A stretch of 64,000 bases of DNA from assembly GCA_963851225.1 (NCBI GenBank), contig CAWKON010000008.1, forward strand, positions 56,653-120,652. Direction: 5' to 3'. Under the pieces are notes generated by a model. The model worked only from the letters and a program-made list of their open reading frames with translations. It did not search any database and was not told the origin of the DNA. Origin of the DNA: an uncultured Alphaproteobacteria bacterium (GTDB taxonomy: Bacteria; Pseudomonadota; Alphaproteobacteria; Rhizobiales; Beijerinckiaceae). Positions 3,230 to 40,970 of this stretch are shown here, piece after piece. Every line of letters begins with the position of its first letter. Within the stretch, counting starts at the first letter, position 1. Position numbers and translations under genes: made by a program.

Positions 3230-3931
3230 TCTGTTCCCAAAAACGGGCCGTAAACGAACCCGTAGCGCATGGCTTGGTCCTAACTGGGCCGCCGTGCTTT
3301 TGCGGGCGAGCTTCCGGCTTGCAACTGAAATACCCATCCAAGTTCACGCGACTTTCCGCGCGAACGGACATCGCGGCACGCCCCTTGGATGCCCCGACCG
3401 GGCAATTCTCTCCCAAGGATTGCTGAAAGCGTGCCCAGCGATTCAATCGACGGCTTGCTTTACTATCTCTTATTTCTTCCAAACGCAATGAACTTCCAAG
3501 CTTCCCGCGGCGGGTGGAAGCGAAAAACACAATTCCACGTGCGCTGAATTGCCGCGCCCCCGCGCCTGATTTGAATTCGATGCACGCTTGCCTTCTCCCT
3601 TATTGTTAATTGGTGGCGAGTTTGCGGTTTTGCCCGGTCGGCAGCATCGACAGCTTCATGGCACCGAAGATCATCCGCGTCATGGCCGGCAAAAAGTCAA
3701 TGATCAATCCCGCTTCGATCACCTCGAGTAGAACGACGATTAAGAGTACCAATCATGCGAATACCTCTAAATTGCCGGGCTCGGCTAGGCATCGAAGCTT
3801 AGCCGATGCTTGCCTGAAGGCACCGGCGGGTCAGAGCGCATTGTCAATGAACAAGTCCTGGTCCCGCGCTCAACACGGAAAGGCCGCCCACGGCCGGGGG
3901 CCTCGACCTCGCCCTGATCGGCAATTGCCGC

Positions 3932-5683
3932 GTGGCGGCGCTGCTCGATGTTCACGGCCGGATCCTCTGGTGGTGCTTTCCGCACTTCAATTCAAACCCA
4001 ATCTTCAGCCGCCTGCTTGCCGGCGACGAGGAAAAAGGGTTCTGCGATGTCGTTTTGGCCGATGTAGCCCGTTCCAAGTCCGGATATGTCAAGAATTCGG
4101 CGGTCGTCGAGACCGAACTTGAGGATCGCCAAGGAGGCCGGCTTCGCATATCCGATTTTGCTCCGCAATTCCGCCGCTTTGAGCGGATGTTCAGGCCACC
4201 GCAGCTTGTGCGTCGAATCTCGCCGATTGCCGGTCTGCCAAGAATATCGATTAGGATCCGGCCGACTCACGCCTATGGGCGCCCCGTCACCAACATCTCG
4301 CTGGGGTCAAACCACATTCGTTATGAGGGTTCGGGTTCGGTCTTGCGGGTTACGACCGATGTGCCGCTTTCCTACATTACCGAGGAAACAGTGTTCCCGC
4401 TTGTTCGGCCACTTACGCTGATCCTTGGACCGGACGAGCCGTTTCAGAGCGCTGTTGACGCCACCTGCCGTGAATTCGAGAAGCAAACGAATGATTATTG
4501 GCTAGGCTGGACGCGCTCGCTTGCCGTGCCGTTCGAATGGCAGGACGCGGTCATCCGCGCCGCAGTGACACTGAAACTCTGCAGCTTCGAGGAGACGGGC
4601 GGTATCGTCGCGGCTCACACCACGTCAATTCCCGAGGCGCCGAATAGCGGCCGCAACTGGGACTACCGGTTTTGTTGGCTTCGAGATGCGCATTTCGTCG
4701 TCCAGGCGCTGAACCGCCTCGGTGCAACCGACACCATGGAAGCCTACATCGACTATGTGACGACGGTTGCGGTGGATCGGGACGCACCTTTGCGGCCAGT
4801 TTATGCGATTGTTCCTGGCAGCGACCTCGGCGAGTGGACGACTCCCGATCTCGCCGGCTTCTTCGGACAGGGACCGGTCCGGATCGGAAATCTGGCGGCC
4901 ACGCAGAACCAACACGATGTCTACGGAAGTGTCATCCTCGCGGCAAGCCAGTTGTTTATCGATGACCGGTTGGCACGGTTGGGCGACGATGCGCTGTTTC
5001 AGCGCCTCGAGGCCTTGGGCGAACAGGCGCGGCGGGTCGCGCTGACGCCAGACGCCGGAATTTGGGAATATCGCGGGCGGGAGCGCATCCACACTCATTC
5101 CGCTGCACATTGCTGGGCAGCCTGTGACCGGTTATCGCAGATTGCCGCGCATCTGGGGATTGAAGGGCGCGCGGACTTCTGGCGGAGTCAAGCGGATGCG
5201 CTGCGCCAGCAGATCCTTGCCCGCGCGTGGAGCGAGACCAAAGGCGCTATAGTAGATGCGCTCGATGGAGAAGAGCTTGACGCGAGTGTGCTGCTCCTCG
5301 CCGAACTGGGTCTTGTACATCCGCAGGATCCCCGGTTCATCAGTACGTGTGAGGCCATCGGGAAGGAGCTTGATCGCAAAGGCTGGGTCATGCGATACGC
5401 CAATGACGACGGTTTTGGAGTGCCCGAGACGGCGTTCCTGGTCTGTACCTTGTGGTACATCGACGCGCTTGCCGCGATTGGCCGCAGGGATGAGGCGCGC
5501 GCACGCTTTGTCAATCTTCTCGATCACCGAAACGCGTTTGGTCTCCTATCCGAAGACATCCACCCGGGGACCGGCCTGCTGTGCGGAAATATCCCACAGA
5601 CCTACTCGATGGCAGCCATCATCATAACGGCCACGAGACTTTCTATTGGATGGGAGGACGCCTGGTCGCGCGTCTCATACTAG
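3932..5683 (+). CDS. glycoside hydrolase family 15 (glucoamylase/trehalase-like); conserved N-terminus extends upstream to ~3851 without a canonical start
   Basis: Carries the GH15 signature NWDYRFCWLRDAHFVVQALNRLG and an alpha/alpha-toroid-like C-terminal half. The reading frame upstream of the GTG at 3932 encodes TERPPTAGGLDLALIGNC, which resembles GH15 N-termini. Confidence 0.8.
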   Translation: MAALLDVHGRILWWCFPHFNSNPIFSRLLAGDEEKGFCDVVLADVARSKSGYVKNSAVVETELEDRQGGRLRISDFAPQFRRFERMFRPPQLVRRISPIAGLPRISIRIRPTHAYGRPVTNISLGSNHIRYEGSGSVLRVTTDVPLSYITEETVFPLVRPLTLILGPDEPFQSAVDATCREFEKQTNDYWLGWTRSLAVPFEWQDAVIRAAVTLKLCSFEETGGIVAAHTTSIPEAPNSGRNWDYRFCWLRDAHFVVQALNRLGATDTMEAYIDYVTTVAVDRDAPLRPVYAIVPGSDLGEWTTPDLAGFFGQGPVRIGNLAATQNQHDVYGSVILAASQLFIDDRLARLGDDALFQRLEALGEQARRVALTPDAGIWEYRGRERIHTHSAAHCWAACDRLSQIAAHLGIEGRADFWRSQADALRQQILARAWSETKGAIVDALDGEELDASVLLLAELGLVHPQDPRFISTCEAIGKELDRKGWVMRYANDDGFGVPETAFLVCTLWYIDALAAIGRRDEARARFVNLLDHRNAFGLLSEDIHPGTGLLCGNIPQTYSMAAIIITATRLSIGWEDAWSRVSY

Positions 5684-5767: not shown

Positions 5768-6092
5768 TCTGGTTCGCAAAGCTCCCCTCGAATGTGCGAC
5801 ACCATGGTGATGCTCAAACCCCGCGGGGAGTGGCCTCCGGGAATTACCTACGAAAAGCCGATTTCGGAAATGGATGCGAAACTCCAGTTCCATGGGTCGA
5901 CCCACACGTAGGCCATGCCGGTCGAGAATCGTCTCGACATGGAGCTCACCGGAATCAAGACCCCTGTTGGCATCAAGATTCAAGGCCCGAGCCTGGAAGA
6001 TATCGAGGAACTGGGCGCGAGAGTGCTGCACATTCTCGGGATGATGCCAGAATTGAGTTCGGTCTGCTTAAATAGTAATCAAAATCTTGTTT
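5768..6092 (+). pseudogene. remnant of an HME-RND efflux pump gene (CzcA/CusA-like), ~100 aa in two frames
   Basis: Frame A reads DTMVMLKPRGEWPPGITYEKPISEMDAKL. Frame B reads MPVENRLDMELTGIKTPVGIKIQGPSLEDIEELGARVLHILGMMPEL. Both resemble CusA/CzcA periplasmic-loop sequence. Full-length RND proteins are ~1050 aa. Confidence 0.5.
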
Positions 6093-6198
6093 AGGCAAGA
6101 TAAAAAATTGGATTCGACAGTCTTAGAATTAATCAGGAACAAATTTGGCGTTGATGCGTTTAAGGCTTGGGTATGCTCAGACAAAGGTGGTCGTGCCC

Positions 6199-7858
6199 AT
6201 GGTTCACCTTGAACTTCTGTACAAGCCTGCCGCGATCAGCCGCGGGAAGCGGACGGTAGACTGGTCGTCGTCTCAAATCGCGTGCCTTTGCCGTCATCCT
6301 CGGTGGCGCCTGCGGCCGGTGGACTTGCGGTCGCGCTGGAGGCGGCGCTCAAGGCGCAGCGGAGGCCTCTGGTTCGGCTGGTCGGGCAAAACCAGCGAGG
6401 AGGGCGGGCCTCCGCTCCAATGCAGGACTGTTGGATCGCTCACCTATGCGGTATGCGACCTTTCGCGCCGCGATATCGAACAATATTATTGCGGCTTCGC
6501 CAACCGGACGCTTTGGCCGATTTGTCATTATCGCCTCGACCTCGCCAATCTGTCGGAATGCAACGCCGCCGCCTATTTCCGGGTGAACGAGCAATTTGCC
6601 CGTCAACTCCATAAGCTGCTGCGTTGCGATGATATTATTTGGGTGCATGATTATCATCTCATTCCCATGGCGCGTTTTCTGCGCCAGATGGGCTGCGCCA
6701 ACCGGATCGGTTTTTTTCTGCATATTCCCTGGCCGGGGCCGGAAGTCGCCAGCGCTTTGCCCGCCTATCAGCGGATCCTGCGCTCGTTTGGAGCCTATGA
6801 TGTCGTTGGTTTTCAGACCGAGACCGACGCCGGTAATTTCCGTGAATGCATCGTGAGCGCCAATGTCGGGCCGAGTTGCCGGTGGCGATTGGTGCGAGAT
6901 CGACGGCCGCCGGATGCAGGTCAGCGCGTTTCCAATCGGCATCGACAACGAGGCCTTCGCGCAAGAGGCACGTGCCGCCGAAAAAAATAGCACGGTCAAA
7001 CGCATGCTCGCGAGCCTCGATGGCCGCGACCTCGTCATCGGCGTCGATCGGCTTGACTATTCAAAGGGCTTGAGACAGCGCATGGCGGCGTTCGCGACTT
7101 TCCTCGAGCGTTCGCCGCAAGCGGCGCGGGCGCGCGTGACGATGCTGCAAATCACGCCAAAATCGCGCTCGGAAGTTCCCGAATATGCCCGTATGCAACG
7201 CGAATTGGAGGAAGAAGTCGGCCGCATCAATGGCAAACTCGGCGATGTCGATTGGACTCCGCTACGCTATATCAACAAATCCATGAGCCATTCGGTCCTC
7301 GCCGGACTTTATCGCATGTCCCGCATCGGCCTCGTCACGCCCTTGCGCGACGGCATGAACCTCGTCGCCAAGGAATATGTGGCGGCGCAAGCGCCAGATA
7401 ATCCCGGCGTGCTCGTCTTGTCGCAATTCGCCGGCGCCGCCCATGAACTAAAAAGCGCCTTGATCGTGAACCCCTACGATATCGAAGCCACCGCCGCCGC
7501 CATCGCGCGCGCCTTCGCCATGCCGCTCGGAGAACGCAAGGACCGATGGAACTCCTTGATGGCGGTGCTTCGCGCAAATAGCGTCCACGATTGGGCGTCC
7601 CATTTTCTTCAGGCTCTGGGCAATGAATACGAAAGCGGGGAGTTCGACAGGGCGCTGGACGGAGCCGGGTTTCCAGGGTCCGCCGGCTTGGGCCGGCTTA
7701 ACGCGATCGGAGCCGCTCCGCGCCGCGCTCCTATGTTCGTTCTTGATCAACCTGGGGCAGAAAGCCCAATTGAGCGAGCGCAGTTTCGCAAGGTCCTCCC
7801 TTTTTCACTGGTTTCGAGCATTGCGCGCGTACCTGCGCCCGGTCACTCGCTGGAATGA
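6199..7858 (+). pseudogene. otsA: alpha,alpha-trehalose-phosphate synthase OtsA, split over three reading frames (>=3 frameshifts near 6200-6260, ~6360 and ~6880)
   Basis: The N-terminus (RLVVVSNRVPLPSSSVAPAAGGLAVALEAALKA) is in frame 3. The middle (GGLWFGWSG...IIWVHDYHLIPMA...NRIGFFLHIPWPGPE...GFQTE) is in frame 1. The C-terminus (ERLDYSKGL...[20 protein letters not shown]...[13 protein letters not shown]) is in frame 2. The whole is collinear with E. coli OtsA. Confidence 0.85.
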
Positions 7859-7878
7859 GGCAAAGCCGCCGGCCACCG

Positions 7879-8637
7879 TTATGGAACTGACCCTCCTTCG
7901 TGACTCGCCAAAAGCAGGTGCAGCTCCGCCCGTACACTCGCCGGATCGGGCAGACGATAGCGTGCCTCGCTCGCAACGCCGGCGGGGCCTACCCGCACCG
8001 AAATTCCGCCTTGCGTATTGACAAACGAAAACCCGCTTTCGTCGGTCAAATCGTCGCCGATAAAGACCGGCTTGCGGCCGGAAAAAGGTGGCCTCGCCAG
8101 AAGGGCGGCGATGCCGTTGCCTTTGTCGTGGTGCACTTGCTTGAATTCGGCAACCATCTTGCCTTCCTGCACCGCAAGACCGGTTTGTCGCGCGAGGCTT
8201 TCGAGAAATTCCAACACTTCGCCTGCGAGTTCCGGCGTTTGCCTGAAATGCACCGCAAGTGCCGCACCTTTATCCTCCAGCATTAACCCCGGATGGGCCG
8301 CCATGAATTTCGCGAGAGGCAGCCGGACGCCATCCATCGCGACATCGGGCGGGCTTCCGCGTGACCTATCCGGAAACCGGACTTCCGCGCCATGCAGCCC
8401 GGCCGCGGCAAAAACGAGCGGCGCGAAAATACGATCGATGTCCTTGATCGTGCGCCCGCTGACGAGGGCAAGCGCCCCCCGTGTGGCACCGGCAAGCCCG
8501 GCGAGCAGCGTCCGTAATGGTTCATCTGCGATGACGTCCTCTGGGCGCGGCATAATTTCGAGGAGCGTGCCATCGGCATCGAGGAAATAAGCGCAGGAGG
8601 AAAGAGGCGCCATCCTCGCGAGATCGCCTAGCTGCAC
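7879..8637 (-). CDS. otsB: trehalose-6-phosphate phosphatase OtsB (HAD superfamily)
   Basis: Carries HAD motif I FLDADGTLLEI, GRT and a C-terminal GDDxTDE motif. It is convergent with otsA. Confidence 0.85.
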   Translation of the reverse strand: MQLGDLARMAPLSSCAYFLDADGTLLEIMPRPEDVIADEPLRTLLAGLAGATRGALALVSGRTIKDIDRIFAPLVFAAAGLHGAEVRFPDRSRGSPPDVAMDGVRLPLAKFMAAHPGLMLEDKGAALAVHFRQTPELAGEVLEFLESLARQTGLAVQEGKMVAEFKQVHHDKGNGIAALLARPPFSGRKPVFIGDDLTDESGFSFVNTQGGISVRVGPAGVASEARYRLPDPASVRAELHLLLASHEGGSVP

Positions 8638-8638
8638 C

Positions 8639-9079
8639 CTACCAAACCCCGGTGTTGGGCATGGACGTCCAGGGCTCGCGCTTTGGCAAGGGCGCGCCCT
8701 GTTGCAAAAGCTCGATTGAAATATTATCCGGCGAACGGATAAAGGCCATGTGCCCGTCGCGGGGCGGCCGGTTGATCGTGACGCCCGCCTTCATCAGTCT
8801 GTCACATGCCGCATAAATATCCTCTACGGCGTAAGCCAGATGACCGAAATTGCGGCCGCCGGTATAGTCCTCCTTGTCCCAATTATGGGTCAGCTCGATG
8901 AGCGGCGCCTGGAATTCCGTGGCGTGTTCCAAATCTCCCGGCGCGGCGAGAAACACGAGAGTGTAACGGCCGGCTTCATTCTCCATTCGCCGCATTTCGA
9001 CGAGCCCTAGCTTATTGACATAGAAATCGAGCGCTTGGTCAAGATCCGCGACACGGACCATGGTATGAAGAAATTCCAT
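8639..9079 (-). CDS. gloA: lactoylglutathione lyase (glyoxalase I)
   Basis: MEFLHTMVRVADLDQALDFYVNKLGL...IELTHNW...GHLAYAVEDIYAACDRL is collinear with E. coli GloA. The long ORF extension upstream of this Met is not supported by similarity. Confidence 0.8.
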   Translation of the reverse strand: MEFLHTMVRVADLDQALDFYVNKLGLVEMRRMENEAGRYTLVFLAAPGDLEHATEFQAPLIELTHNWDKEDYTGGRNFGHLAYAVEDIYAACDRLMKAGVTINRPPRDGHMAFIRSPDNISIELLQQGAPLPKREPWTSMPNTGVW

Positions 9080-9203
9080 TACTTTTCTCCAATTTGCCCG
9101 ACCGGGTGGCCGGGCAAACAAATGCCAAACATCCGTTCGCAATGTTATATAGCACTGAAGCGGGGCCGCGCCGCCTCTAGCGCGTGCTTGAGTTAACAAT
9201 TCG

Positions 9204-10624
9204 GTGAGCGCGCCATCTATGCCGGTAGAACGGGAAGCGACGATGAACGCGGCCGGCAGACTGAAAGAGCGCGCGGCGCTTGCTTCGATTGCGGTGAGTG
9301 CGTCGATGACCGCGGCAAAATTCGCCGCCGGGCTTGCCTCGGGGTCGCTCGCGGTGCTTTCCGAAGCTGGCCATAATCTCGCCGATGTGGCCGCCACCGC
9401 TCTCACCTATTTCGCTGTGAGGATCGCGAACAAGCCCGCCGACGAGGAACATCAATTCGGCCACGCCAAGGTCGAGGCATTGGCCGCTTTGGTCGAAACC
9501 GGCTTCCTGTTCGCGCTCGCCGTTTTTATCCTGATCGAAGCGATCGCACGGCTAGCAGGCCATGCCACGAAAATCGAGGCCAATTCTTTCGTCTTCGGTG
9601 TTTTGATTGCCTCGATCATCGTGGATTTGGCGCGTTGGCGTTCCCTGAAACGGATCGCCGCAACGACGAAAAGCGACGCGCTCGCCGCCGACGCATTGCA
9701 TTTTTCGAGCGATATCGTCAGCTCCGCCCTGGCGTTGTGCGGGATCACCGCCGCGCGTTACGGCTTTCCACAAGGCGACGCGCTGGCGGCCTTAGGGCTT
9801 GCGGTATTCATCGCGCGTGGCGGGCTGGCAGATTGGCCGGCGCACCGTCAACACTCTCGTTGACGCGGCGCCGAAGGGTCTTGCCTCGCAAATCAGGACG
9901 CTCGCGCAATCCGTTCCTGGCGTGGTCAAAGTCGAGACGCTCCGCCTGCGTCCGGCCGGAGCCGAGGTGTTCGGCGATATTGCCATCACCGTGTCGCGGA
10001 CCTTACCGCTTGAAAAAGCCGCCGCGATCGAGGCGAATGTCGCGGCGGCGATCGCGGCCCGGCATCCCGAGGTCGCCGTCACGGTCACGGCGCAGCCGGT
10101 CGCCCTCGACGACGAAACGATGCTCGAACGCATTCTTCTGATCGCGGCCAAACGCCGCGTTTCGATTCATCACGTCACCATTGCAGGAAATCGATGCGCG
10201 GACCGCGATCAGTTTCGACGTCGAACTCGACGGTCGTATGACGCATGGCAATGCACATGAGATCGTCTCTGGGCTCGAGAGCGAGATCGGCCGCGAACTC
10301 GGCCCCGGCATTGAAGTCGAAACCCATATCGAGCCGCTGGAACCGCGCCCATTGCAGGGTCACGACGCGCCTATGGAAATCACGCGCGGAAATCGCCCAT
10401 GCTTTCGCCAAAATGGCATCCCTAGCGGGACCAATTCGCGACGTGCACAGCGTCCGGGTGAGGACAACGCCGGACGGCCTGGTCGTCAACTACCATTGCC
10501 GGGTCAGCCCTTACCTCAGCGTCGACGAAGTGCACGAACATGTCGACGAGCTCGACCGGAAAATGCGCGCCGCTTTCCGGGCATCGTCAGAATCGTCGGC
10601 CACGCCGAGCCGTTGCGCGCATGA
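9204..10624 (+). pseudogene. cation diffusion facilitator (CzcD/FieF-like) metal efflux protein with C-terminal cytoplasmic domain; reading frame broken ~4 times
   Basis: The TM domain (SEAGHNLADVAATALTYFAVRIANKPADEEHQFGHAKVEALAA, HFSSDIVSS) is in frame 0. The C-terminal domain pieces lie in ORFs 9799.., 10181.. and 10245.. (VKVETLRLRPAGAEVFGDIAITV, HEIVSGLESEI, VHSVRVRTTPDGLVVNYHCRV). Confidence 0.75.
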
Positions 10625-10660
10625 GCGAAGATTTCGCCCGCGGCGCTGCCACCCTTTGCC

Positions 10661-11938
10661 ATGCTCGCTTCCCTGTTGCGGGCACGCCGCTTCGCGGGCT
10701 TGTTCTGGTGCCAGTTTTTTTCCGTCTTCAACGATAATTTCGTACGCAACATGCTCGCCATGCTGATCCTGTTCCGGCTCGGCGAAATTGGAGGCAGGCC
10801 CCCTGATCACGCTCGCGGTTGGCACGTTCATGGCTCCCTCGCTGTTTCTCTCCGGGCTTGGCGGCGAAATGGCGGACGCGCGATGACAAGGCGTGGCTTG
10901 CGCGGCGTCTCAAATTCGCGGAAATATTGGTTCAGACTGTCGCCGCCGCAGGGCCTCGCTCTCGCCTCGTTGCCGCTGCTTTATACCGCGCTTGTTCGGA
11001 CTTGGCGTGATCTCGGCTTTGTTCGGCCCGGTCAAATACGGTATTCTTCCCGACCTTCTCGCGAAACAGGAACTGCTCGCCGGCAACGCCCTCGTCGAGG
11101 CGGCAACATTCATCGCGATTTTTTTGGGGCTGATCGCGGGCGGCCTGTCCGCGAAGGGACGCGCGCCGGAAGGCACCGTTTTGCAGCTGATGGTCATTGC
11201 CATCGCTTGTTTCGCCGCCAGCCTTTTTATTCCCGCGGCAGCGCGCGCGGCGCCCGGTCTTCGCGCGAATCGCAATGTCTTCGCCTCCACCTTCGCGCTC
11301 CTGCGCGAGATCGCGCGAGACGCAACCTCTTTGGACACGCAGCGTGGCGGTCTCCTGGTTTTGGATGAGCGGCGCGGTGGCTCTCTCGCTGGTGCCGGTG
11401 GTCGTCCGCAACAAAACGGGAGGCGGCATCGAGGTCGAGACGGCGGTGAGCGCGCTCTTCGCGCTCGGCATCGGAACCGGCTCGCTTGCGGCGGCGGTAA
11501 TTGCCCGCGGGCGGATTTATTTGAAGCCGGTTCCGCTGGCCGCGCTCGGCATGGCGGCCTTTCTGATCGACCTCGGCGCCGCGACATTCTTCCTGCCGGT
11601 GGCAAAAGTTGAGGTGGGGCTTGCCGAATTTTTTTCATCTATGGCCGGGATCCGCATCGCCTGCGATGTCGCGGGGCTTGCCTGCGCCGGCGGACTTTTT
11701 GTCGTGCCTTTGTTTACCGCAATCCAGGCCGACGCGCCGAAAGACCGGCGCGCCGAGAATAGTCGGCGGCGTAAACATTTTAAATTCGGCTTTCATCGTT
11801 TTGGGGGTGCTCGCGACAGCCGTGCTGCAGAGCTCGCGCGTGGGCGTGACGGAGCCAGTGCTTCTCGCCGCGCTCGGCGTTTTGAACCTCGGCGCGGCGT
11901 TTTATGTGCGCAAGTCCGCGACGCAAGGCGTGGCCTGA
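10661..11938 (+). pseudogene. MFS transporter, lysophospholipid transporter LplT-like; split over >=4 frames
   Basis: The pieces MLASLLRARRFAGLFWCQFFSVFNDNFVRNMLAMLILF, FGPVKYGILPDLLAKQELLAGNALVEAATFIAIFLGL, LSLVPVVVRNK, GIGTGSLAAAVIARGRIYLKPVPLAALGM and RIVGGVNILNSAFIVLGVLA are consecutive but lie in different frames. Confidence 0.6.
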
Positions 11939-12207
11939 AGGCATACGTCCAGAGCGCGAAAATCGGTACGCATGATATTGAGAAGGGGCGCTGTTTTGAA
12001 ACGGAGCTGCCATTCGGCGACCGCCGCCTTGGCTGGAAAGCCGATACCCTCCGAACGTGAAATCGCCAACCCTGCCGCCTGCAGACGGCTTACGTGCGTT
12101 TGCGACCCCCGGCCTTGGGAGCACGGTAAACGACTGGAAATTGCTCCAATTTAACGAGTGGCCTTACCTTCTCCTGGCGAATTTTCTTGCTTACTGGAGG
12201 TTGCCCG

Positions 12208-12768
12208 CTATTGGGCGCGGACTCTGCGGCGCCAATCGGTCCAATCCACGATTTCAGAGGAAACAGTCTCTACGGCCGCACCAGGATCGAGATTCTCAAG
12301 CAGACCGACGAGGTTCATACTCGGGTGGCGTGCATTCGGTACGATCAGGGCATCAAACCCAAGGAACTGAGCAGCTGCGGCGATAGTCTGCGTAGCTGAA
12401 TAGTCGTAACTTTCGTACCGCCCGGTATTCACGCCGAGCCTATCGAGAGTCTGCAAGTTCGGAAGGCGCACGGCGCGCTCGGCGTGAATTGTCAACTCGT
12501 GCAGTTCGTGAACGAGCTTGCTCGGCCAGACCGGTTCCAGCGAGAGGCGGTGTGCGATTTCCGAGAGTGCGCCGTCGCGTTCGAGACTTGTGTAGAGCAC
12601 CTCGAATTCGCCTGTAGGGCTCCAGCGTCCATTGGCGGCGGATCCTCTAGCCGGGTTCCGGCCGCTGCGTATGATTCGCCATACTTGGCCGTCGAACGGT
12701 TGCGCGCCGATATCTTCAAGGGCGTCCAGTACAACCTTGTCGTGAACCCGCCGCCCCCGATCCCCCAT
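12208..12768 (-). CDS. RES-domain toxin (NAD+-targeting, MbcT/ParT-like)
   Basis: WRIIRSGRNPARGSAANGRWSPTGEFEVLYTSLERDGALSEIAHRL is typical of RES-domain proteins. The stop of the upstream antitoxin lies 1 nt from this ATG. Confidence 0.8.
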   Translation of the reverse strand: MGDRGRRVHDKVVLDALEDIGAQPFDGQVWRIIRSGRNPARGSAANGRWSPTGEFEVLYTSLERDGALSEIAHRLSLEPVWPSKLVHELHELTIHAERAVRLPNLQTLDRLGVNTGRYESYDYSATQTIAAAAQFLGFDALIVPNARHPSMNLVGLLENLDPGAAVETVSSEIVDWTDWRRRVRAQ

Positions 12769-12769
12769 C

Positions 12770-13108
12770 TCAGGTGTATGACCCCTGGTCCAAGCTCTCG
12801 ATAACTTCCAGCACCTTGTCGGTTCGTTGATCGTGGATCAGATCGATGGCACGTTGCCCGCCAAGGAGACGATGTTTCGCGTAAAGCCAGACCCGAATTT
12901 CTTCCGGGGTGTAAAGCTCCGATAACTGGTCCACCACGTATCTTAGGTCGGAGATGATTAGCTGCGTCTTCGGGTGCGGAAGTGCTGCCCCGGATGTCCA
13001 CCGAGATACGGTCGCCGGCGAAACGGCGGCGATGTTTGCAACATCCACGCCTTTCAATCCGCCCCGCTCTCGGAGGGTGTCGATGATTTGTGCGACCGCG
13101 CTAGTCAT
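12770..13108 (-). CDS. Xre-family antitoxin with DUF2384-type toxin-binding C-terminal domain (MbcA/ParS-like)
   Basis: N-terminal HTH (GVDVANIAAVSPATVSRW) and C-terminal VWLYAKHRLLGGQRAIDLI...VLEVIESLDQG motif. The start is taken at MTSAVAQII. Confidence 0.75.
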   Translation of the reverse strand: MTSAVAQIIDTLRERGGLKGVDVANIAAVSPATVSRWTSGAALPHPKTQLIISDLRYVVDQLSELYTPEEIRVWLYAKHRLLGGQRAIDLIHDQRTDKVLEVIESLDQGSYT

Positions 13109-13109
13109 G

Positions 13110-14398
13110 TCAGCGGCCCATGACCGCGTTGATTGAACTCGACCCACTCCGGAAGGTAAGCGGTCTGGATCGTGTCGGCTCGCAATCTCTTGCTTGAAGA
13201 TCGCCCAACGCGTCGCGCAGCCTGATCAGGCGCTTCTTCGCATCCAAGACGAGCTTGACGACTTTCTCATCGGGCAACTTAAGCTGGGTAATTTGGCGAG
13301 CCGACCTGACGGCAGGATCTATGTGACGTAGCACCAGATGCTCCGCACGACACGGTTCAGGCACTCGCGAGAGATCTTCGAGCTGGTGACTACGCCGGGT
13401 CAACATATGCGCGTCCGAATGCTCGATCTGATCTTCGCGACGGGGGCAGCAGCTGGTGTCCGTACAGCCGACACGTGGCTTTCCCCCTTTCACCGCGAAC
13501 ACCGCGTTAAGTTGTTCTTCGGTGAGATATCGATCGAGATCAGGAATGTAAATCCGAGTTCCAAGCCCTCCGCCTCCACTTGATTGAGGCCGTTTCCACT
13601 GATTAGCTTGAAAGCTCTCCTTTTGACAGACGCCGTGGCTGATACCCGCGACGGCTCCGAACGCAGCAGCAGCGAGCCCTGCGAAACCGCCGGCCGCGTC
13701 TGCGACCAACGGCCGCCCGGTCGCATGAAGGTCTCGGACGGACTGATATATGCCCGAGTGCCAGCTCCGGTCGCGGTCGCCCCAAACCCAGAAATCTTTA
13801 GCCAAACATTTTGGATGGGAAGATTTTCCACGACAGAGATGATTTTCTCACGCCCTCTCGGATCTCGAAGCAGGCTATTAGATGTGATCACTTGGTAGTC
13901 AATCGCGATGCCAGAGCCGCCATTCCGGTCGAGCTCCAGTCGCAACGCATCACAGAGTGTGCGATCAACGGCCCACCAATCGTCGTCCAATGTCTCGACG
14001 AGGTTGCTGGGAGCCAGCACTGCATCGACGCCGTGTTTGATCGCGAATTCTGCGATGAGACGGGCAGGGTTGAGATTGCTTCTGCGGCCGAAATCACTCG
14101 CTTTCCACGGAGTGTCCGCGTTGGCCCACGGCAGCTTCCTCACGCTGGAATCAAAGCCGCCAACTGTCGCCATCTCGGCAAAATTCGGATCCAGAACGGT
14201 CTCGCAACCGCTCGTCTTTAGTGCCTTAAGCAGCTCGATCTGTTTACCAATGTGTCCAGCGTCAAATACGAATTTATTAAACCTCAACTTTCCAGAAGCA
14301 TGCAGCGCTTCAATCCTGCGATGGCCCGTATGTCCGATTCGAAGGAATCCGCCAATGACAGAGGGCTGGGGGTGAAGGACGTGAACAGTGGCGACCAT
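13110..14398 (-). CDS. hypothetical ~430-aa protein, first gene of the Xre/RES operon (one frameshift ~13500-13800); C-terminal Cys cluster GCTDTSCC
   Basis: Two overlapping ORFs (13490..14398 and 13110..13805) read through collinearly. The stop overlaps the antitoxin start by 1 nt on the same strand. No domain is recognisable by eye. Confidence 0.5.
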
Positions 14399-14706
14399 GT
14401 TAATCTCCTGACCAAGCGATTATGTACGTTTTTGTTGCACAAATGTCAAGATATGAAACAAAAACGTAGACATCTCACCGTGCCAGCGTGACCGAGTTGT
14501 CCCACTTCGCCGCCGGTACAAGACGAGCCTTGATGGCCAAGTGCGGGGGAGGCGACACGAAAATGCTATTTTTGAATGGCTCAATGGGAAACGGAGCATC
14601 CACGCGATGAAACTGAAACGGGTGTCGTCAGCGAACTCGCGCACGGGACATCCTCGGCTATTTGCTACCCCTGGCGGCGCGGTTTTCGAGATGGAGGCGA
14701 GGTAAA

Positions 14707-16038
14707 ATGGCGGCCTTTGACGAGCTCATTCAGGAAATCGACCAGCGGTTCTCTCTCGGGCCAAAGGCCAATCTGCTTGTTCAAGAGATAGCCGGCTTAA
14801 TCACCGGACAGCCGGGCGGTATGGAAAGCTTCCTCGATAAGTTCAAGGCCGCCGGTTTCGCCACCGAGGTTAATTCCTGGTCGGCTGGAACTGAGATTGT
14901 CCCGCTTTTGGGACAAGAGGTAGAGCAGACGCTAGGCTCCGACACGATTAGCGAGATTGCCAAAAAAGCCGACATTAGCCAAAGCTTTGCTAGAACGATT
15001 ATGGGCGATGCAATACCCAAAATCGTCGTCCTGCTGGCAAAAGGCGAAGCAATCCCTCCCGCCGTTCCTGCTTCGGAATCGCTTGCCCTCGACTCGGCCA
15101 TCCCGCTTCCATCTTCCCCAGTCGAGGAAATCACGCAGCCTTCCCCCGTCGAGGAAATCACGCAGCCCGTAGCAGAGCAAATTCGACCGAGCATAACGGA
15201 CCGCTTTGCCGCAGCCCCGCAAAAACCGACGCCGCGCTTCAAGCAGCTTTTCCGCTATGGTTCCCGCGCGGCCCTGGCCACCGGTCTTTTTGGGATCGCG
15301 TGGTTGGCAGGGTCGTATTATTCCGGTGAACATTGGCCCTTTGACGCCATTAAGGCCCCGCCTGCCGCGACGCAAGAGAGTTTGGCGCGTACGGAGATGC
15401 TCCGCGCGACGCAAGAAATAACCGAGGACATCCGGGGTCTCAAAGCCGACGTAGAGGCCTTGCGCGCCGCGCAGAGCCAGTCCGGGAATGATGCCACCGC
15501 GCTCGAGGGCCTGAAGACGCGTCTGGATGCGGTGAAGGCCGAAACTGGCTCCTCGATCGCCGAGCTTACGAGTAAGGTCGAGAGCTTGCAGCGCGAGCCA
15601 GAGGCGAACCTGTCCCAAATTGTCGAGCGGCTCGACCGCATTGAGCACCAGATCGCGGGATCGCCCACGACCGCATCGATCGGCGCCACCGCCGCCCCAG
15701 GAAAGGCGGCCGCCGGAATTGCGGCGCAACAAAGAAAAATAGGCGGCCGCGGCGACGCGTTCGATCCGTCCAAAAATCCAACTGCCCCCGGAGCTCCCCA
15801 CCCGCTGGGTAGCCTTGCATCGGCGAGCACGCCGCATTTGCTCACGAATTGGGTTGTCCGTGATGTTTACAATGGGATTGCTCTCGTCGAGAGTCCGCGT
15901 GGCTCAATCGAGGTCTCGCCGGGAGAGATCATCCCTGGCGCGGGCACGGTGCAATCGATCGAAAGGCGCGGCGCCGGCTGGATTGTGATCACGAGTCGCG
16001 GCCTTATCGATTCCGACCGCACTAGTTTCCATCCCTGA
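14707..16038 (+). CDS. YidB/DUF937 N-terminal domain protein with PVEEITQ tandem repeat, one TM helix, coiled-coil region and C-terminal beta-rich domain
   Basis: The N-terminus (LDKFKAAGFATEVNSWSAGTEIVPLLGQEVEQTLGSDTISEIAKKADIS) matches the DUF937 pattern. A hydrophobic segment (ALATGLFGIAWLAGSYY) follows. A heptad-like region precedes a repetitive C-terminus. The RBS is GAGGTaaaATG at 14707. Confidence 0.6.
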   Translation: MAAFDELIQEIDQRFSLGPKANLLVQEIAGLITGQPGGMESFLDKFKAAGFATEVNSWSAGTEIVPLLGQEVEQTLGSDTISEIAKKADISQSFARTIMGDAIPKIVVLLAKGEAIPPAVPASESLALDSAIPLPSSPVEEITQPSPVEEITQPVAEQIRPSITDRFAAAPQKPTPRFKQLFRYGSRAALATGLFGIAWLAGSYYSGEHWPFDAIKAPPAATQESLARTEMLRATQEITEDIRGLKADVEALRAAQSQSGNDATALEGLKTRLDAVKAETGSSIAELTSKVESLQREPEANLSQIVERLDRIEHQIAGSPTTASIGATAAPGKAAAGIAAQQRKIGGRGDAFDPSKNPTAPGAPHPLGSLASASTPHLLTNWVVRDVYNGIALVESPRGSIEVSPGEIIPGAGTVQSIERRGAGWIVITSRGLIDSDRTSFHP

Positions 16039-16368
16039 TACCTGCCGCTCCTTGCGCCTCGTTGATATGCGTTCAATGCCTGCATCGAAGGAAGCAACAT
16101 GAAGTCGCACAGCCTCGGCGGCGGCCGGGCGGGGAAGCAATCGTGATACAGTTCCTTCGCGTGCTCCAAGAATTTTGATGGCATAAGAATTGTGCCGGCA
16201 GACCATTAAGGGGCTCGCGGACGTGGTCAAGGTTGCGCAGCGCCCACTGGGGGGACGAGATGAAACCGATGAACGTCCGGCAACAACGATCCCCGGACAT
16301 GAACAAGATTGACAAGTCCAAGGCCAGCGCTGGCGCCGCGAAGGCGCGCGCGGCAGACCGCCAAGCCA

Positions 16369-17920
16369 ATGCGCACCCGCCAATCGGCCGAGGCCAAATT
16401 TGCGGAGCTCAAACGCCGCTTGCTCGAAATCAACGATCTTGCGGCGGCGGGGGCGGTGCTCGGCTGGGACCAATCCACCTATATGCCGGAAGGCGGCGCT
16501 CCCGCGCGGGCACGACAAGGCGCAATGCTCAGCAGGCTCGCGCATGAAAAATCGGTCGATCCGGACTTAGGCAAACTGCTCGACGCGCTTGCATCCTATG
16601 CCGCCGGTTTGCCGTATGATTGCGATGAGGCAAGCCTGATACGGATCGCCCGGCGCGACTTCGAGAAGGCGATCAAGCTGCCGAGCGCCTATGTTGCCCG
16701 GGCGAGCGCGTTCGCTTCCGCTCTTATGATGCGTGGACGCGGGCGAGGCCAGCGAACGACTTTGCAACCATGCTGCCATTTTTGGAACAGGCGGTCGAAC
16801 TTAGCCGTGAATACGCTTGCTTTTTCGCGCCTTATAAGCATATCGCCGACCCTCTGATTGATGCCGCTGAGGAAGGCATGACGACTGCTGACAATCCGCT
16901 CTCTCTTTGCCGGACTGAGGAGCGAATTGATACCGATCGTGCGCGCCATTTCCGATCAGCCGGCTCCCAGCGACGATTGTCTGCGCGGTTCCTTCAGCGA
17001 GCAAAAGCAGCTCGATTTCAGCCTTTCCGTGGTCAAGCAGTTCGGCTACGATACCCACCGTGGAAGGCTCGACAAAACCCATCATCCTTTCTGCACAAAA
17101 TTCTCCGCAGGCGATGTCCGGATTACCACTCGCATCGACGAGAAGCATTTCGGCGATGCGCTATTTTCGACCATGCACGAAGCGGGTCATGCCCTGTACG
17201 AGCAAGGTGTCGCCGCTTCGCTTGAAGGCACGCCGCTAGGATCGGGAACATCCGCGGGCGTGCACGAGAGCCAGTCGCGGCTTTGGGAAAATGTCGCTGG
17301 CCGCGGCCGCCCGTTCTGGGAGCATTTTTACCCGGTTCTGCGGGATCGTTTTCCAGATCAGTTCCGGCGGACAGGATTCGAGACCTTTTACCGCGCGATC
17401 AACAAGGTGTGAACGCTCCTTGATCCGCACCGATGCCGACGAGGTCACCTATAATCTGCATATCATGATGCGTTTCGATCTGGAGCTGGAATTGCTCGAA
17501 GGCAAACTCCGCGTCAAGGATCTCCCCGAAGCCTGGCGCGCCCGCATGCAAGCCGATCTCGGCATTGCTCCCGGGGACGACCGAGATGGCTGTCTGCAAG
17601 ACGTGCATTGGTATGGCGGCACCGTCGGCGGCGGATTTCAGAGCTATACCATCGGCAATATTCTCAGCGCGCAGTTTTATGCCGCCGCGGTCAAAGCGCA
17701 TCCCGAAATTCCGCATGAAATTGCGAAGGGGGAGTTCGCATCGCTGCATGGCTGGCTCCGCGAACATCTCTACCAGCACGGGCGGAAGTTTCTGCCCGAT
17801 GAGCTTGTAGCGCGGGCGGCATCCGGCCCGATGAGCACAAAACCCTATCTAGCTTATCTTCACGCGAAATATGGCGAGCTTTACCGTCTAGATTTGGCTC
17901 CCCTTCCCGAACACTTATAG
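16369..17920 (+). pseudogene. M32 carboxypeptidase (Taq-like zinc carboxypeptidase), split over 4 ORFs (>=3 frameshifts)
   Basis: The pieces LGWDQSTYMPEGGAPARARQ, SYDAWTRARPANDFATMLPFLEQ, HHPFCTKFSAGDVRITTRIDE, the HEAGHALYEQG zinc motif and DVHWYGGTVGGGFQSYTIGNILSAQ are consecutive but lie in different frames. Confidence 0.8.
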
Positions 17921-40668: not shown

Positions 40669-40744
40669 TGGCTCCCTGAGCAGGACTCGAACCTGCGACC
40701 GATCGATTAACAGTCGATTGCTCTACCAACTGAGCTATCAGGGA
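40669..40744 (-). tRNA. tRNA-Asn (anticodon GTT), CCA encoded
   Basis: Reverse complement TCCCTGATAGCTCAGTTGGTAGAGC..CGACTGTTAATCGATCG..GGTTCGAGTCC..TCAGGGAGCCA folds as a cloverleaf with anticodon loop CTGTTAA. Confidence 0.9.
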
Positions 40745-40896
40745 TTAGCGTGATGACGCGCCGCGCATATAGCAAGCCCGCGCCGCCTTTGCAAAGCGCC
40801 AACGGCCGCGGCTTCGGCTTTTGCTGGCCGGGAGCGCGCGCCTTGCGGTAAAACCTCATCCTTTGTATAGGCGGGGGCCCCTCTCGTGGCGGCAGA

Positions 40897-40970
40897 GGCC
40901 TCGTGGCGGAATGGTTACGCAGAGGACTGCAAATCCTTCCATCCCGGTTCGATTCCGGGCGAGGCCTCCA
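40897..40970 (+). tRNA. tRNA-Cys (anticodon GCA), CCA encoded
   Basis: GGCCTCGTGGCGGAATGGTTACGCAGAGGACTGCAAATCCTTCCATCCCGGTTCGATTCCGGGCGAGGCCTCCA has acceptor, D, anticodon (CTGCAAA loop) and T arms. Confidence 0.9.

Follow-up and report, generated by a model that had tools for sequence, protein, structure and literature searches.

When a toxin-antitoxin (TA) pair is preceded by a larger gene on the same strand, does that gene belong to the module, and what might its product do? The question is raised by a 64,000-nucleotide (nt) stretch of contig CAWKON010000008.1 (assembly GCA_963851225.1), from an uncultured alphaproteobacterium of the Beijerinckiaceae, to which we refer here as the window. 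Its minus strand carries, in 5'-to-3' order, a large gene, an Xre antitoxin gene, and a RES toxin gene. The explanation that we favor overall, with moderate confidence, is that the three form a mobile cassette with one promoter, in which the large protein, predicted to have a fold of the tRNA-guanine transglycosylase (TGT) superfamily, acts as an accessory, either as an active enzyme or as a ligand-binding module.

First, we studied the linkage of the large gene to the TA pair across genomes. A scan of one genome per species (185,579 species), with search patterns taken solely from the large protein, yielded 54 loci in Alpha-, Beta-, and Gammaproteobacteria, Binatia, and other groups, with identities of 33 to 61%. 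Downstream DNA was available at 52 loci, and at 50 of them, Xre and then RES came immediately 3' of the large gene (tblastn). The original prediction had treated the large gene as a real third member of the operon, to be given up if its homologues occurred mainly without TA neighbors, and this distribution bears it out. Both exceptions were fragmentary copies of the large gene that kept Xre. At L056 and L057 (Binatia chromosomes, ca. positions 6001 to 6932), TGT-like gene fragments are followed by Xre, RES was not detected at an E value of ≤0.01, and the copies of the cassette have probably decayed. Among seven metagenomic places, the full order was present in six, and the seventh (the contig of P0065) had only a 78-amino-acid (aa) RES fragment without a called antitoxin. 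Along similar lines, the large gene was found on 14 plasmids of cultured bacteria (Nitratireductor, Aminobacter, Mesorhizobium, Rhizobium, Roseivivax, Dinoroseobacter, and the actinomycete Gordonia, among others), and all four of the plasmids that we inspected (Nitratireductor, Gordonia, Dinoroseobacter, and Roseivivax) carried the large gene, an Xre/MbcA/ParS antitoxin, and a "RES family NAD+ phosphorylase." The hosts of the cassette were Proteobacteria, Binatia, and Actinomycetota, and the linkage was nearly invariant across phyla and down to 29 to 35% identity.

The reverse test gave a similar picture. The RES toxin of this clade is so divergent that the window copy matched only 16 of 72,556 plasmids at an E value of ≤1e-3, and 14 of these 16 carried the large gene. 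Across 41 loci, the three proteins also covaried in their identity to the window copies (Pearson coefficient of 0.93 for both pairs), partly as an effect of two clades. Among the 16 plasmids matched, the two-gene form was found in Pannonibacter only, where two plasmids had an Xre-RES pair of the same clade (42% toxin identity) without a trace of the large gene. For instance, Pannonibacter phragmitetus plasmid p.BB_1 (L070, positions 3400 to 4564) has such a pair, and the sequence TTTCA-N13-TGAAA, which corresponds to the candidate operator described below, is upstream of Xre. Since Pannonibacter has kept both pair and operator in the absence of the large gene, these plasmids argue that the Xre-RES pair can be maintained alone and that the large protein is accessory, not a neutralizer of the toxin.

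Besides Xre-RES, the cassette had no conserved neighbors. Its flanks contained repABC, recombinases or integrases, insertion sequence (IS) elements, VapBC, a pair of genes for a UvrD helicase and an ATP-binding protein, genes of integrative and conjugative elements (TraG, SSB, and Toprim), and housekeeping genes. Given the variable flanks, the mobile-element contexts, and the lack of any other conserved neighbor, the three genes behave as an autonomous, horizontally mobile cassette. In the window (G+C content of 58%), the G+C content of the cassette region (0.53 to 0.60 at positions 12200 to 14600) was slightly below that of the flanking genes (0.60 to 0.65), consistent with horizontal acquisition. 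On Dinoroseobacter shibae plasmid pDSHI06 (L061, positions 7235 to 10379), the UvrD-helicase-domain and ATP-binding proteins are encoded directly downstream of the cassette, an arrangement reminiscent of Gabija (GajB/GajA), with genes for an IS91 transposase and an integrase on the upstream side.

The original prediction placed the three genes correctly, all on the same strand (Table 1; it did not say which), and was right about a large gene upstream of the pair; the protein that it gave as 430 aa has 429 codons in our reconstruction. It had also described the stop of the large gene as overlapping the antitoxin start. There is no overlap: the stop codon (TGA, 13110 to 13112) and the antitoxin ATG at 13108 are separated by a 1-nt spacer (TGAcATG), as are the antitoxin stop codon (TGA, 12770 to 12772) and the toxin ATG at 12768 (TGAgATG). 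In relatives of the alphaproteobacterial clade, stops and starts are 0 to 4 nt apart or overlap as ATGA, so that the tight coupling is conserved.

Table 1. Coordinates in the window of the three cassette genes, their leader, and the Cys/His cluster
Feature	Position	Strand	Description
Candidate operator	14425..14468	minus	15-nt inverted repeat, arms 14425-14439 and 14454-14468, 93% complementary; brackets the -35 element
Promoter-like elements	14419..14449	minus	TTGACA at 14444-14449, 17-nt spacer, TACATA/TACATAAT at 14419-14426; read by eye
Shine-Dalgarno sequence AGGAG	14405..14409	minus	6 nt 5' of the large-gene ATG at 14398
Third (large) gene	13110..14398	minus	429 codons; TGT-like predicted fold; 1-nt deletion between 13745 and 13744
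Cys/His cluster GCTDTSCC...HSDAH	13404..13469 (parts 13446-13469 and 13404-13421)	minus	C312, C317, C318, and H331 in P0001 numbering; probable zinc site
Xre/MbcA/ParS-type antitoxin	12770..13108	minus	112 aa; helix-turn-helix (HTH) and C-terminal toxin-binding domain; start set by the 112-aa gene calls of homologues
RES-domain toxin	12208..12768	minus	186 aa; MbcT-like; predicted NAD+ phosphorylase; Pfam RES match

The large gene is split into two open reading frames (ORFs) in different frames (13490 to 14398 and 13110 to 13805). Using its closest homologue, P0001 (429 aa, 82% identical), tblastn joined the two ORFs at ...GTRAYI/(E)SVRDLH..., and a DNA alignment with four homologous loci showed that the single frame break of the original prediction is a one-base deletion at 13744/13745, where the other loci have the G of the Glu219 codon. 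The ratio of nonsynonymous to synonymous substitution rates (dN/dS) of the large gene, measured against the related locus L001, was 0.125 on the 5' side of the break and 0.121 on the 3' side, where the 210 codons contained no further stops. Each of the three cassette genes had a dN/dS ratio of 0.10 to 0.18; all three are under purifying selection. The break is probably a recent mutation or an assembly or sequencing error. Undiminished selection past it, and frame breaks in neighboring genes and at other loci, argue against an old pseudogene, and such an error, or a mutation of very recent origin, accounts for it most simply. Among the related loci, many of which come from long-read metagenome-assembled genomes, breaks were found in Xre/RES too (L023 and L052) as well as in the large gene (L005, L039, L049, and L050).

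These data bear on the view that the large gene is unrelated cargo beside the TA pair, or a dead pseudogene in the window, and that the module is an ordinary two-gene TA system. The break in the window copy, the existence of a two-gene version, and the broken or partial copies of the large gene (at L056 and L057 in addition to the four loci just named) would fit such a view. We nevertheless consider it quite improbable, given a linkage that holds across phyla at low identity, with codivergence of the proteins, and a dN/dS ratio of 0.12 on both sides of a break after which the frame stays open. The breaks in neighboring genes, and in Xre/RES elsewhere, also fit assembly error better than decay specific to the large gene.

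Next to the large gene, the TA pair has known relatives. The toxin matched the Pfam RES model with an E value of 3.5e-17 (63 bits, against a cutoff of 23), and its only significant match in the PDB was MbcT of Mycobacterium tuberculosis (6fkg_A; E value of 0.0046), in an alignment that retains the equivalents of R47, Y58, E69, and S126. In MbcT, R47 and Y58 are essential for toxicity, E69 contributes partially, and S126 is dispensable (PMC6436930). MbcT is an NAD+ phosphorylase, with nicotinamide and ADP-ribose-1''-phosphate as products (PMC6436930), and by analogy, the same activity is predicted for the RES toxin of the window. The antitoxin aligned over its full length with MbcA (6fkg_C; E value of 4.5e-15) and with the NCBIfam model Xre_ParS_antitoxin, in the latter case under the curated cutoff, and its subthreshold matches to Pfam Xre_MbcA_ParS_C and HTH models together covered both domains. 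The closest relative of the pair is, in sum, MbcA/MbcT, and the catalytic residues of the RES domain are retained. The locus has two features of a RES-Xre type II TA system, namely, a RES domain with the Arg/Tyr/Glu/Ser set and, directly upstream, an antitoxin with HTH and toxin-binding domains. The module as a whole is not bicistronic: here and at ca. 60 related loci, the antitoxin gene is separated from the promoter by a third gene.

The leader upstream of the large gene is AT rich and contains promoter-like elements and an inverted repeat (Table 1). A sigma-70/terminator consensus scan of positions 12000 to 14800 called no promoter and no terminator, the promoter-like elements being passed over because their -10 box has only three of the six consensus bases. 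A core of the repeat, TTTCA-N13-14-TGAAA, was present 55 to 91 nt upstream of the large-gene ATG in 26 of the 54 loci, against a background of 0.8% of 210-nt windows. Among the 27 loci above 40% identity, 22 had the motif and the remainder had one-mismatch versions of it; the window copy itself has one mismatch (TGCAA). Most relatives also have TTGAC or TTGAT at the same place between the arms. In Pseudomonas putida and P. aeruginosa, Xre-RES complexes act through inverted repeats of this kind to repress the promoters of their own genes (PMC12204516). From this precedent and the position of the repeat upstream of the large gene, we infer that the large gene lies inside an autoregulated transcription unit, with the repeat as its putative operator.

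The large gene is far beyond a chance ORF. This follows from its dN/dS ratio, from 189 word-index matches to the large protein (almost all of them 425 to 435 aa long and, where named, "hypothetical protein"), and from the 961 cluster representatives recovered by an exhaustive profile search at an E value of ≤1e-3 (321 of them at ≤1e-30). Longer family members (up to 555 aa) were considered as domain fusions and look like miscalled starts instead. The original prediction could assign no motif to the protein, and at the level of sequence, this was right. Neither the protein nor 48 of its relatives had a match in Pfam or NCBIfam, and the Pfam TGT model (PF01702) was not matched even at an E value of ≤10. 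PADLOC-DB 2.0 gave no match for the large protein or RES and only weak HTH-type matches for Xre, and the best result of a profile search of PDB sequences with the family was an unrelated oxidase (E value of 0.44).

Structure prediction was more informative. P0001 was modeled with AlphaFold2 from an alignment of 48 sequences, and the model (pLDDT of 86.7 and pTM of 0.88) has eight beta-alpha units (ca. residues 16 to 256), a beta-hairpin (282 to 293), and a helical C-terminal region (294 to 403), that is, the topology of a TGT-type (beta/alpha)8 barrel with its C-terminal subdomain. In one fold comparison, barrels other than TGT all scored ≤14.2, and Foldseek also placed TGT at the top (E value of 1.7e-5; TM score of ca. 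0.45 to 0.5 over ca. 420 columns). A search of the viral folds in BFVD returned only uncharacterized phage proteins and weak TGT-annotated matches. With bacterial TGT (Zymomonas mobilis, 3unt/1q2r) and QTRT2, the model shares the barrel, the beta-hairpin, the Cys/His helical region, and an Asp that ends strand 3. In view of this model, the case for a TGT-superfamily fold is reasonably strong but not proven. The original prediction had named accessory regulators, chaperone-like third components, and defense effectors as frequent roles of TA-associated genes; judged by its TGT-like predicted fold, the third protein looks more like an enzyme than like a chaperone or regulator, and it matched no chaperone family.

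We then measured residue conservation in 220 full-length family members (P0001 numbering). D70 (99%), W91 (100%), P130 (97%), D145 (97%), G256 (100%), and R351 (99%) were nearly invariant, and position 234 was acidic (D or E) in 99% of the members. The GCTDTSCC..H cluster pointed out by the original prediction is present, and its C312, C317, C318, and H331 were each conserved in 95 to 97% of the members, as C-x4-CC-x12-H. In TGT, the barrel is followed by a beta-hairpin and then by a zinc subdomain; in the model, the Cys3-His cluster likewise comes after the barrel and the hairpin, at a chain position equal to that of the TGT zinc subdomain and with a different spacing (CxCxxC...H in TGT), and it is a probable zinc site. 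The strand order of the model was compared by eye with the Escherichia coli TGT sequence. By this comparison, D70 lies at the end of strand 3, matching the general acid/base Asp of TGT (TDSGG motif), and D/E234 lies on strand 7. The family has a median isoelectric point of 9.2, with a net charge of ca. +7 concentrated from residue 291 to the end. Such a pattern points to a pocket that is functional and to a surface suited to binding polyanions, without a sign of specificity for guanine or 7-deazaguanine. Two further conserved elements are of low model confidence: a nearly invariant glycine loop, G276 to G278, in a segment with a pLDDT of <50 (residues 274 to 278; window ca. 13560 to 13580), and the C-terminal tail (residues 410 to 429; window ca. 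13110 to 13170), where F416-R417 and the terminal glycine G428 are conserved and the last 10 residues are poorly predicted. Going by the model, they may be docking elements or flexible catalytic elements.

Put together, the favored explanation would work as follows. The three genes would be transcribed from one promoter, and, as in known Xre-RES systems, the Xre-RES complex would bind the palindrome and repress the whole operon while Xre blocks the RES active site. Once freed, RES would phosphorolyze NAD+ to nicotinamide and ADP-ribose-1''-phosphate, and growth would stop, again by extrapolation from those systems. The large protein would be a (beta/alpha)8 barrel of the TGT superfamily with a Cys3-His site, the carboxylates D70 and D/E234 at the barrel mouth, and a basic C-terminal half. 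Our best guess is that it would act on nucleic acid in the manner of TGT, through base flipping or N-glycosidic chemistry, and would add a sensing arm or a second-effector arm to the NAD+-depleting pair. A bolder version of this idea is that the cassette represents a new tripartite TA or defense class, in which a diverged TGT-superfamily enzyme gates or complements an MbcT-type NAD+ phosphorylase by a base-flipping, base-exchange, or glycosidic reaction, with nucleic acid, a protein-linked nucleobase, or an NAD+-derived nucleotide as the substrate. We hold this joint reading only tentatively, as one that is possible and clearly short of probable, and a role of the cassette in defense is a conjecture.

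Several observations weigh against an active TGT-like enzyme as a working part of this cassette. The assignment to TGT rests on predicted structure because sequence methods show no link: hhalign of the family against E. coli TGT, or against an eight-member TGT alignment built from phage-collection records, gave probabilities of <1%, and hmmsearch gave nothing. (A weak segment aligned by hhalign, PLIAD234ATGG with PILTD89SGG of TGT, had a probability of 0.13% and was not relied on.) Even in Foldseek, a GH10 xylanase was nearly level with TGT (E values of 5.8e-5 and 1.7e-5, respectively). By eye, strand 8 has S/A/C254-H255-G256 where TGT has its nucleophile Asp (DMFD), and strand 4 ends in P130 where an Asp of TGT reads guanine or preQ1. 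With the nucleophile and the guanine-recognizing Asp apparently replaced, the protein may have another chemistry or may do no more than bind a ligand. The annotated or Pfam-labeled neighbors of the cassette in eight loci included no gene for 7-deazaguanine synthesis, QueC-like protein, CD-NTase, or Dpd protein, and neither the phage collection nor the IMG/VR viral contigs contained a homologue of the large protein. A distant clade (33 to 38% identity) lacks the operator motif and presumably uses another site. Finally, the window copy of the large gene is itself frame-broken.

The apparent replacement of the nucleophile also bears on whether the protein is catalytic at all. It could be a noncatalytic scaffold or regulator that binds Xre, RES, or their complex and sets the release of the toxin, docking perhaps via the Gly-rich loop or the FRGG...GR C-terminal tail, in a manner similar to that of Cap10 with CdnD or of QTRT2 beside QTRT1. 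Cap10, from type IV CBASS (cyclic oligonucleotide-based antiphage signaling system), is a TGT-family protein that works with the QueC-like Cap9, lacks a zinc site, and holds the NDG-modified CD-NTase; it has been remodeled to bind its partner and keep it inactive. Translational coupling, which suggests stoichiometric coproduction, the apparent loss of the TGT nucleophile, and the docking-like appearance of the low-confidence loop and tail would all suit such a scaffold. We find it doubtful, since D70, D/E234, D145, and W91 are invariant at the barrel mouth, as is more usual at sites that are active or bind a ligand than at sites that have decayed, and since the Cys3-His cluster and the basic C-terminal half are retained, whereas Cap10 has lost its zinc site.

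If the protein is an enzyme, the substrate could be other than nucleic acid. One reading, purely by chemical analogy, is that it cleaves or exchanges the N-glycosidic bond of NAD+-related nucleotides (nicotinamide mononucleotide [NMN], nicotinic acid mononucleotide [NaMN], ADPR-1''-phosphate, or nicotinamide riboside), with either a deeper depletion of NAD+ or its rebuilding for recovery as the outcome. The N-glycosidic bond at ribose C1' is the site of action of RES toxins as well as of TGT enzymes, an arms race over NAD+ reconstitution around the products of RES is known, and the apparent replacement of the guanine-specific Asp makes it probable that the base is neither guanine nor 7-deazaguanine. 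This reading seems improbable to us, as the basic, zinc-cluster C-terminal half resembles the polynucleotide-binding part of TGT; moreover, rebuilding NAD+ would amount to a second antitoxin, yet the pair exists without the large gene.

Some RES toxins (ParT) ADP-ribosylate a target rather than degrade NAD+. The large protein might, along these lines, be a repair or eraser enzyme, that is, a second antitoxin that reverses a nucleic acid modification made by RES, as DarG does against DarT; an enzyme acting on glycosidic bonds could remove a modified base, and its first position in the operon means that it would be made before the toxin. This we judge very improbable. The pair is closest to MbcTA, for which macromolecular ADP-ribosylation was not detected (PMC6436930), and in the two-gene version of Pannonibacter, Xre by itself is enough for the toxin gene to be kept. 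We retain, at the confidence given above, the accessory enzyme or ligand-binding module as the preferred explanation.

How does the cassette compare with known systems? As in MbcTA (Rv1989c/Rv1990c), ParST, NatRT, and the Xre-RES system of P. putida, the antitoxin gene precedes the toxin gene; the palindromic promoter element of the cassette resembles the autoregulatory sites of other Xre-RES systems, and both are found on plasmids and genomic islands. The difference is the 429-codon gene between promoter/operator and antitoxin in almost every member of the clade. Compared to TGT, the third protein has 8% identity, no profile similarity, and another metal motif, and it sits in a mobile TA cassette instead of being a housekeeping enzyme. 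Cap10 and DpdA are precedents for the recruitment of TGT-family proteins into defense. DpdA, of the Dpd DNA-modification system, works with the other dpd genes and preQ0 (PMC10164549). None of the partner genes of these two proteins (Cap9 and CD-NTase or dpdB to -K) was among the annotated or Pfam-labeled neighbors in the eight cassette loci, where the partner is, unlike theirs, an NAD+ phosphorylase TA pair.

Tripartite TA systems, such as the toxin-antitoxin-chaperone (TAC) systems, likewise have three cotranscribed genes, with a third protein accompanying a type II pair (PMC3581621; PMC9098466). The third gene of TAC encodes a SecB-like chaperone, whereas that of the cassette is encoded first, gives a 429-aa TIM barrel by prediction, is neither a chaperone nor an extra repressor, and appears dispensable for keeping the toxin gene. 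The aRES antiphage proteins use the same RES NAD+ phosphorylase chemistry against phages but stand alone, without an antitoxin in the operon, and were ruled out as equivalents of the cassette for this reason; GndRX was ruled out as a two-gene system. In the literature that we searched, which left out most subscription journals, we found neither a three-gene RES-Xre system nor the family of the third protein described. Our results point to an undescribed three-part system, in which the RES-Xre module is extended by a previously unrecognized family, by predicted fold of the TGT superfamily.

Other genes in the window are described here for completeness. A Peptidase_M32 (carboxypeptidase Taq) gene at 16309 to 17412 (plus strand) is split, with profile positions 2 to 103 and 175 to 336 in two ORFs of the same frame that are separated by a stop; the middle part is apparently in another frame (ORF 16770 to 17225), which suggests two compensating frameshifts within ca. 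200 nt. Convergent with the RES gene is a gene for an MFS-like membrane protein (10661 to 12060, plus strand), seemingly spread over three overlapping ORFs in different frames (10661 to 11368, 10893 to 11612, and 11197 to 12060), another sign of frequent frame breaks in the window. At 9799 to 10766 (plus strand), three overlapping ORFs in different frames each matched ZT_dimer, of cation-diffusion-facilitator zinc transporters, and represent either tandem domains or more frame breaks. Divergent from the cassette, a 458-aa protein is encoded at 14662 to 16038 (plus strand), with a YidB-like N-terminal domain, two copies of the tandem repeat SPVEEITQP, and a weak, subthreshold match to the Syntaxin profile at residues 245 to 318. 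The only Rfam or ARAGORN matches in the 64 kb were the divergent genes for tRNA-Asn (GTT) and tRNA-Cys (GCA), ca. 150 nt apart, at 40669 to 40970.

RES-Xre pairs are among the commonest TA modules and have been studied for persistence, plasmid maintenance, and, lately, phage defense, while their triggers are largely unknown. A conserved protein with a predicted enzyme fold, encoded under the shared candidate operator, gives a concrete handle on the trigger or the output of these modules. It also brings to light a sizeable family that has no model in Pfam, NCBIfam, or PADLOC, with a predicted fold that groups it with the enzymes of base exchange in tRNA and DNA. Given that the cassette is just 2.3 kb long and that cultured hosts exist (Sphingomonas adhaesiva DSM 7418, Dinoroseobacter shibae, Nitratireductor thuwali, Aminobacter aminovorans, Mesorhizobium huakuii, and Gordonia sp., among others), it should be possible to put the idea to a direct test. 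If the protein is active, the range of TGT-type chemistry would be extended and linked to the depletion of NAD+. If the bolder reading is true, conflict systems would have recruited the queuosine-pathway fold independently for a third time, following DpdA and Cap10, and for the first time in a link with NAD+ depletion.

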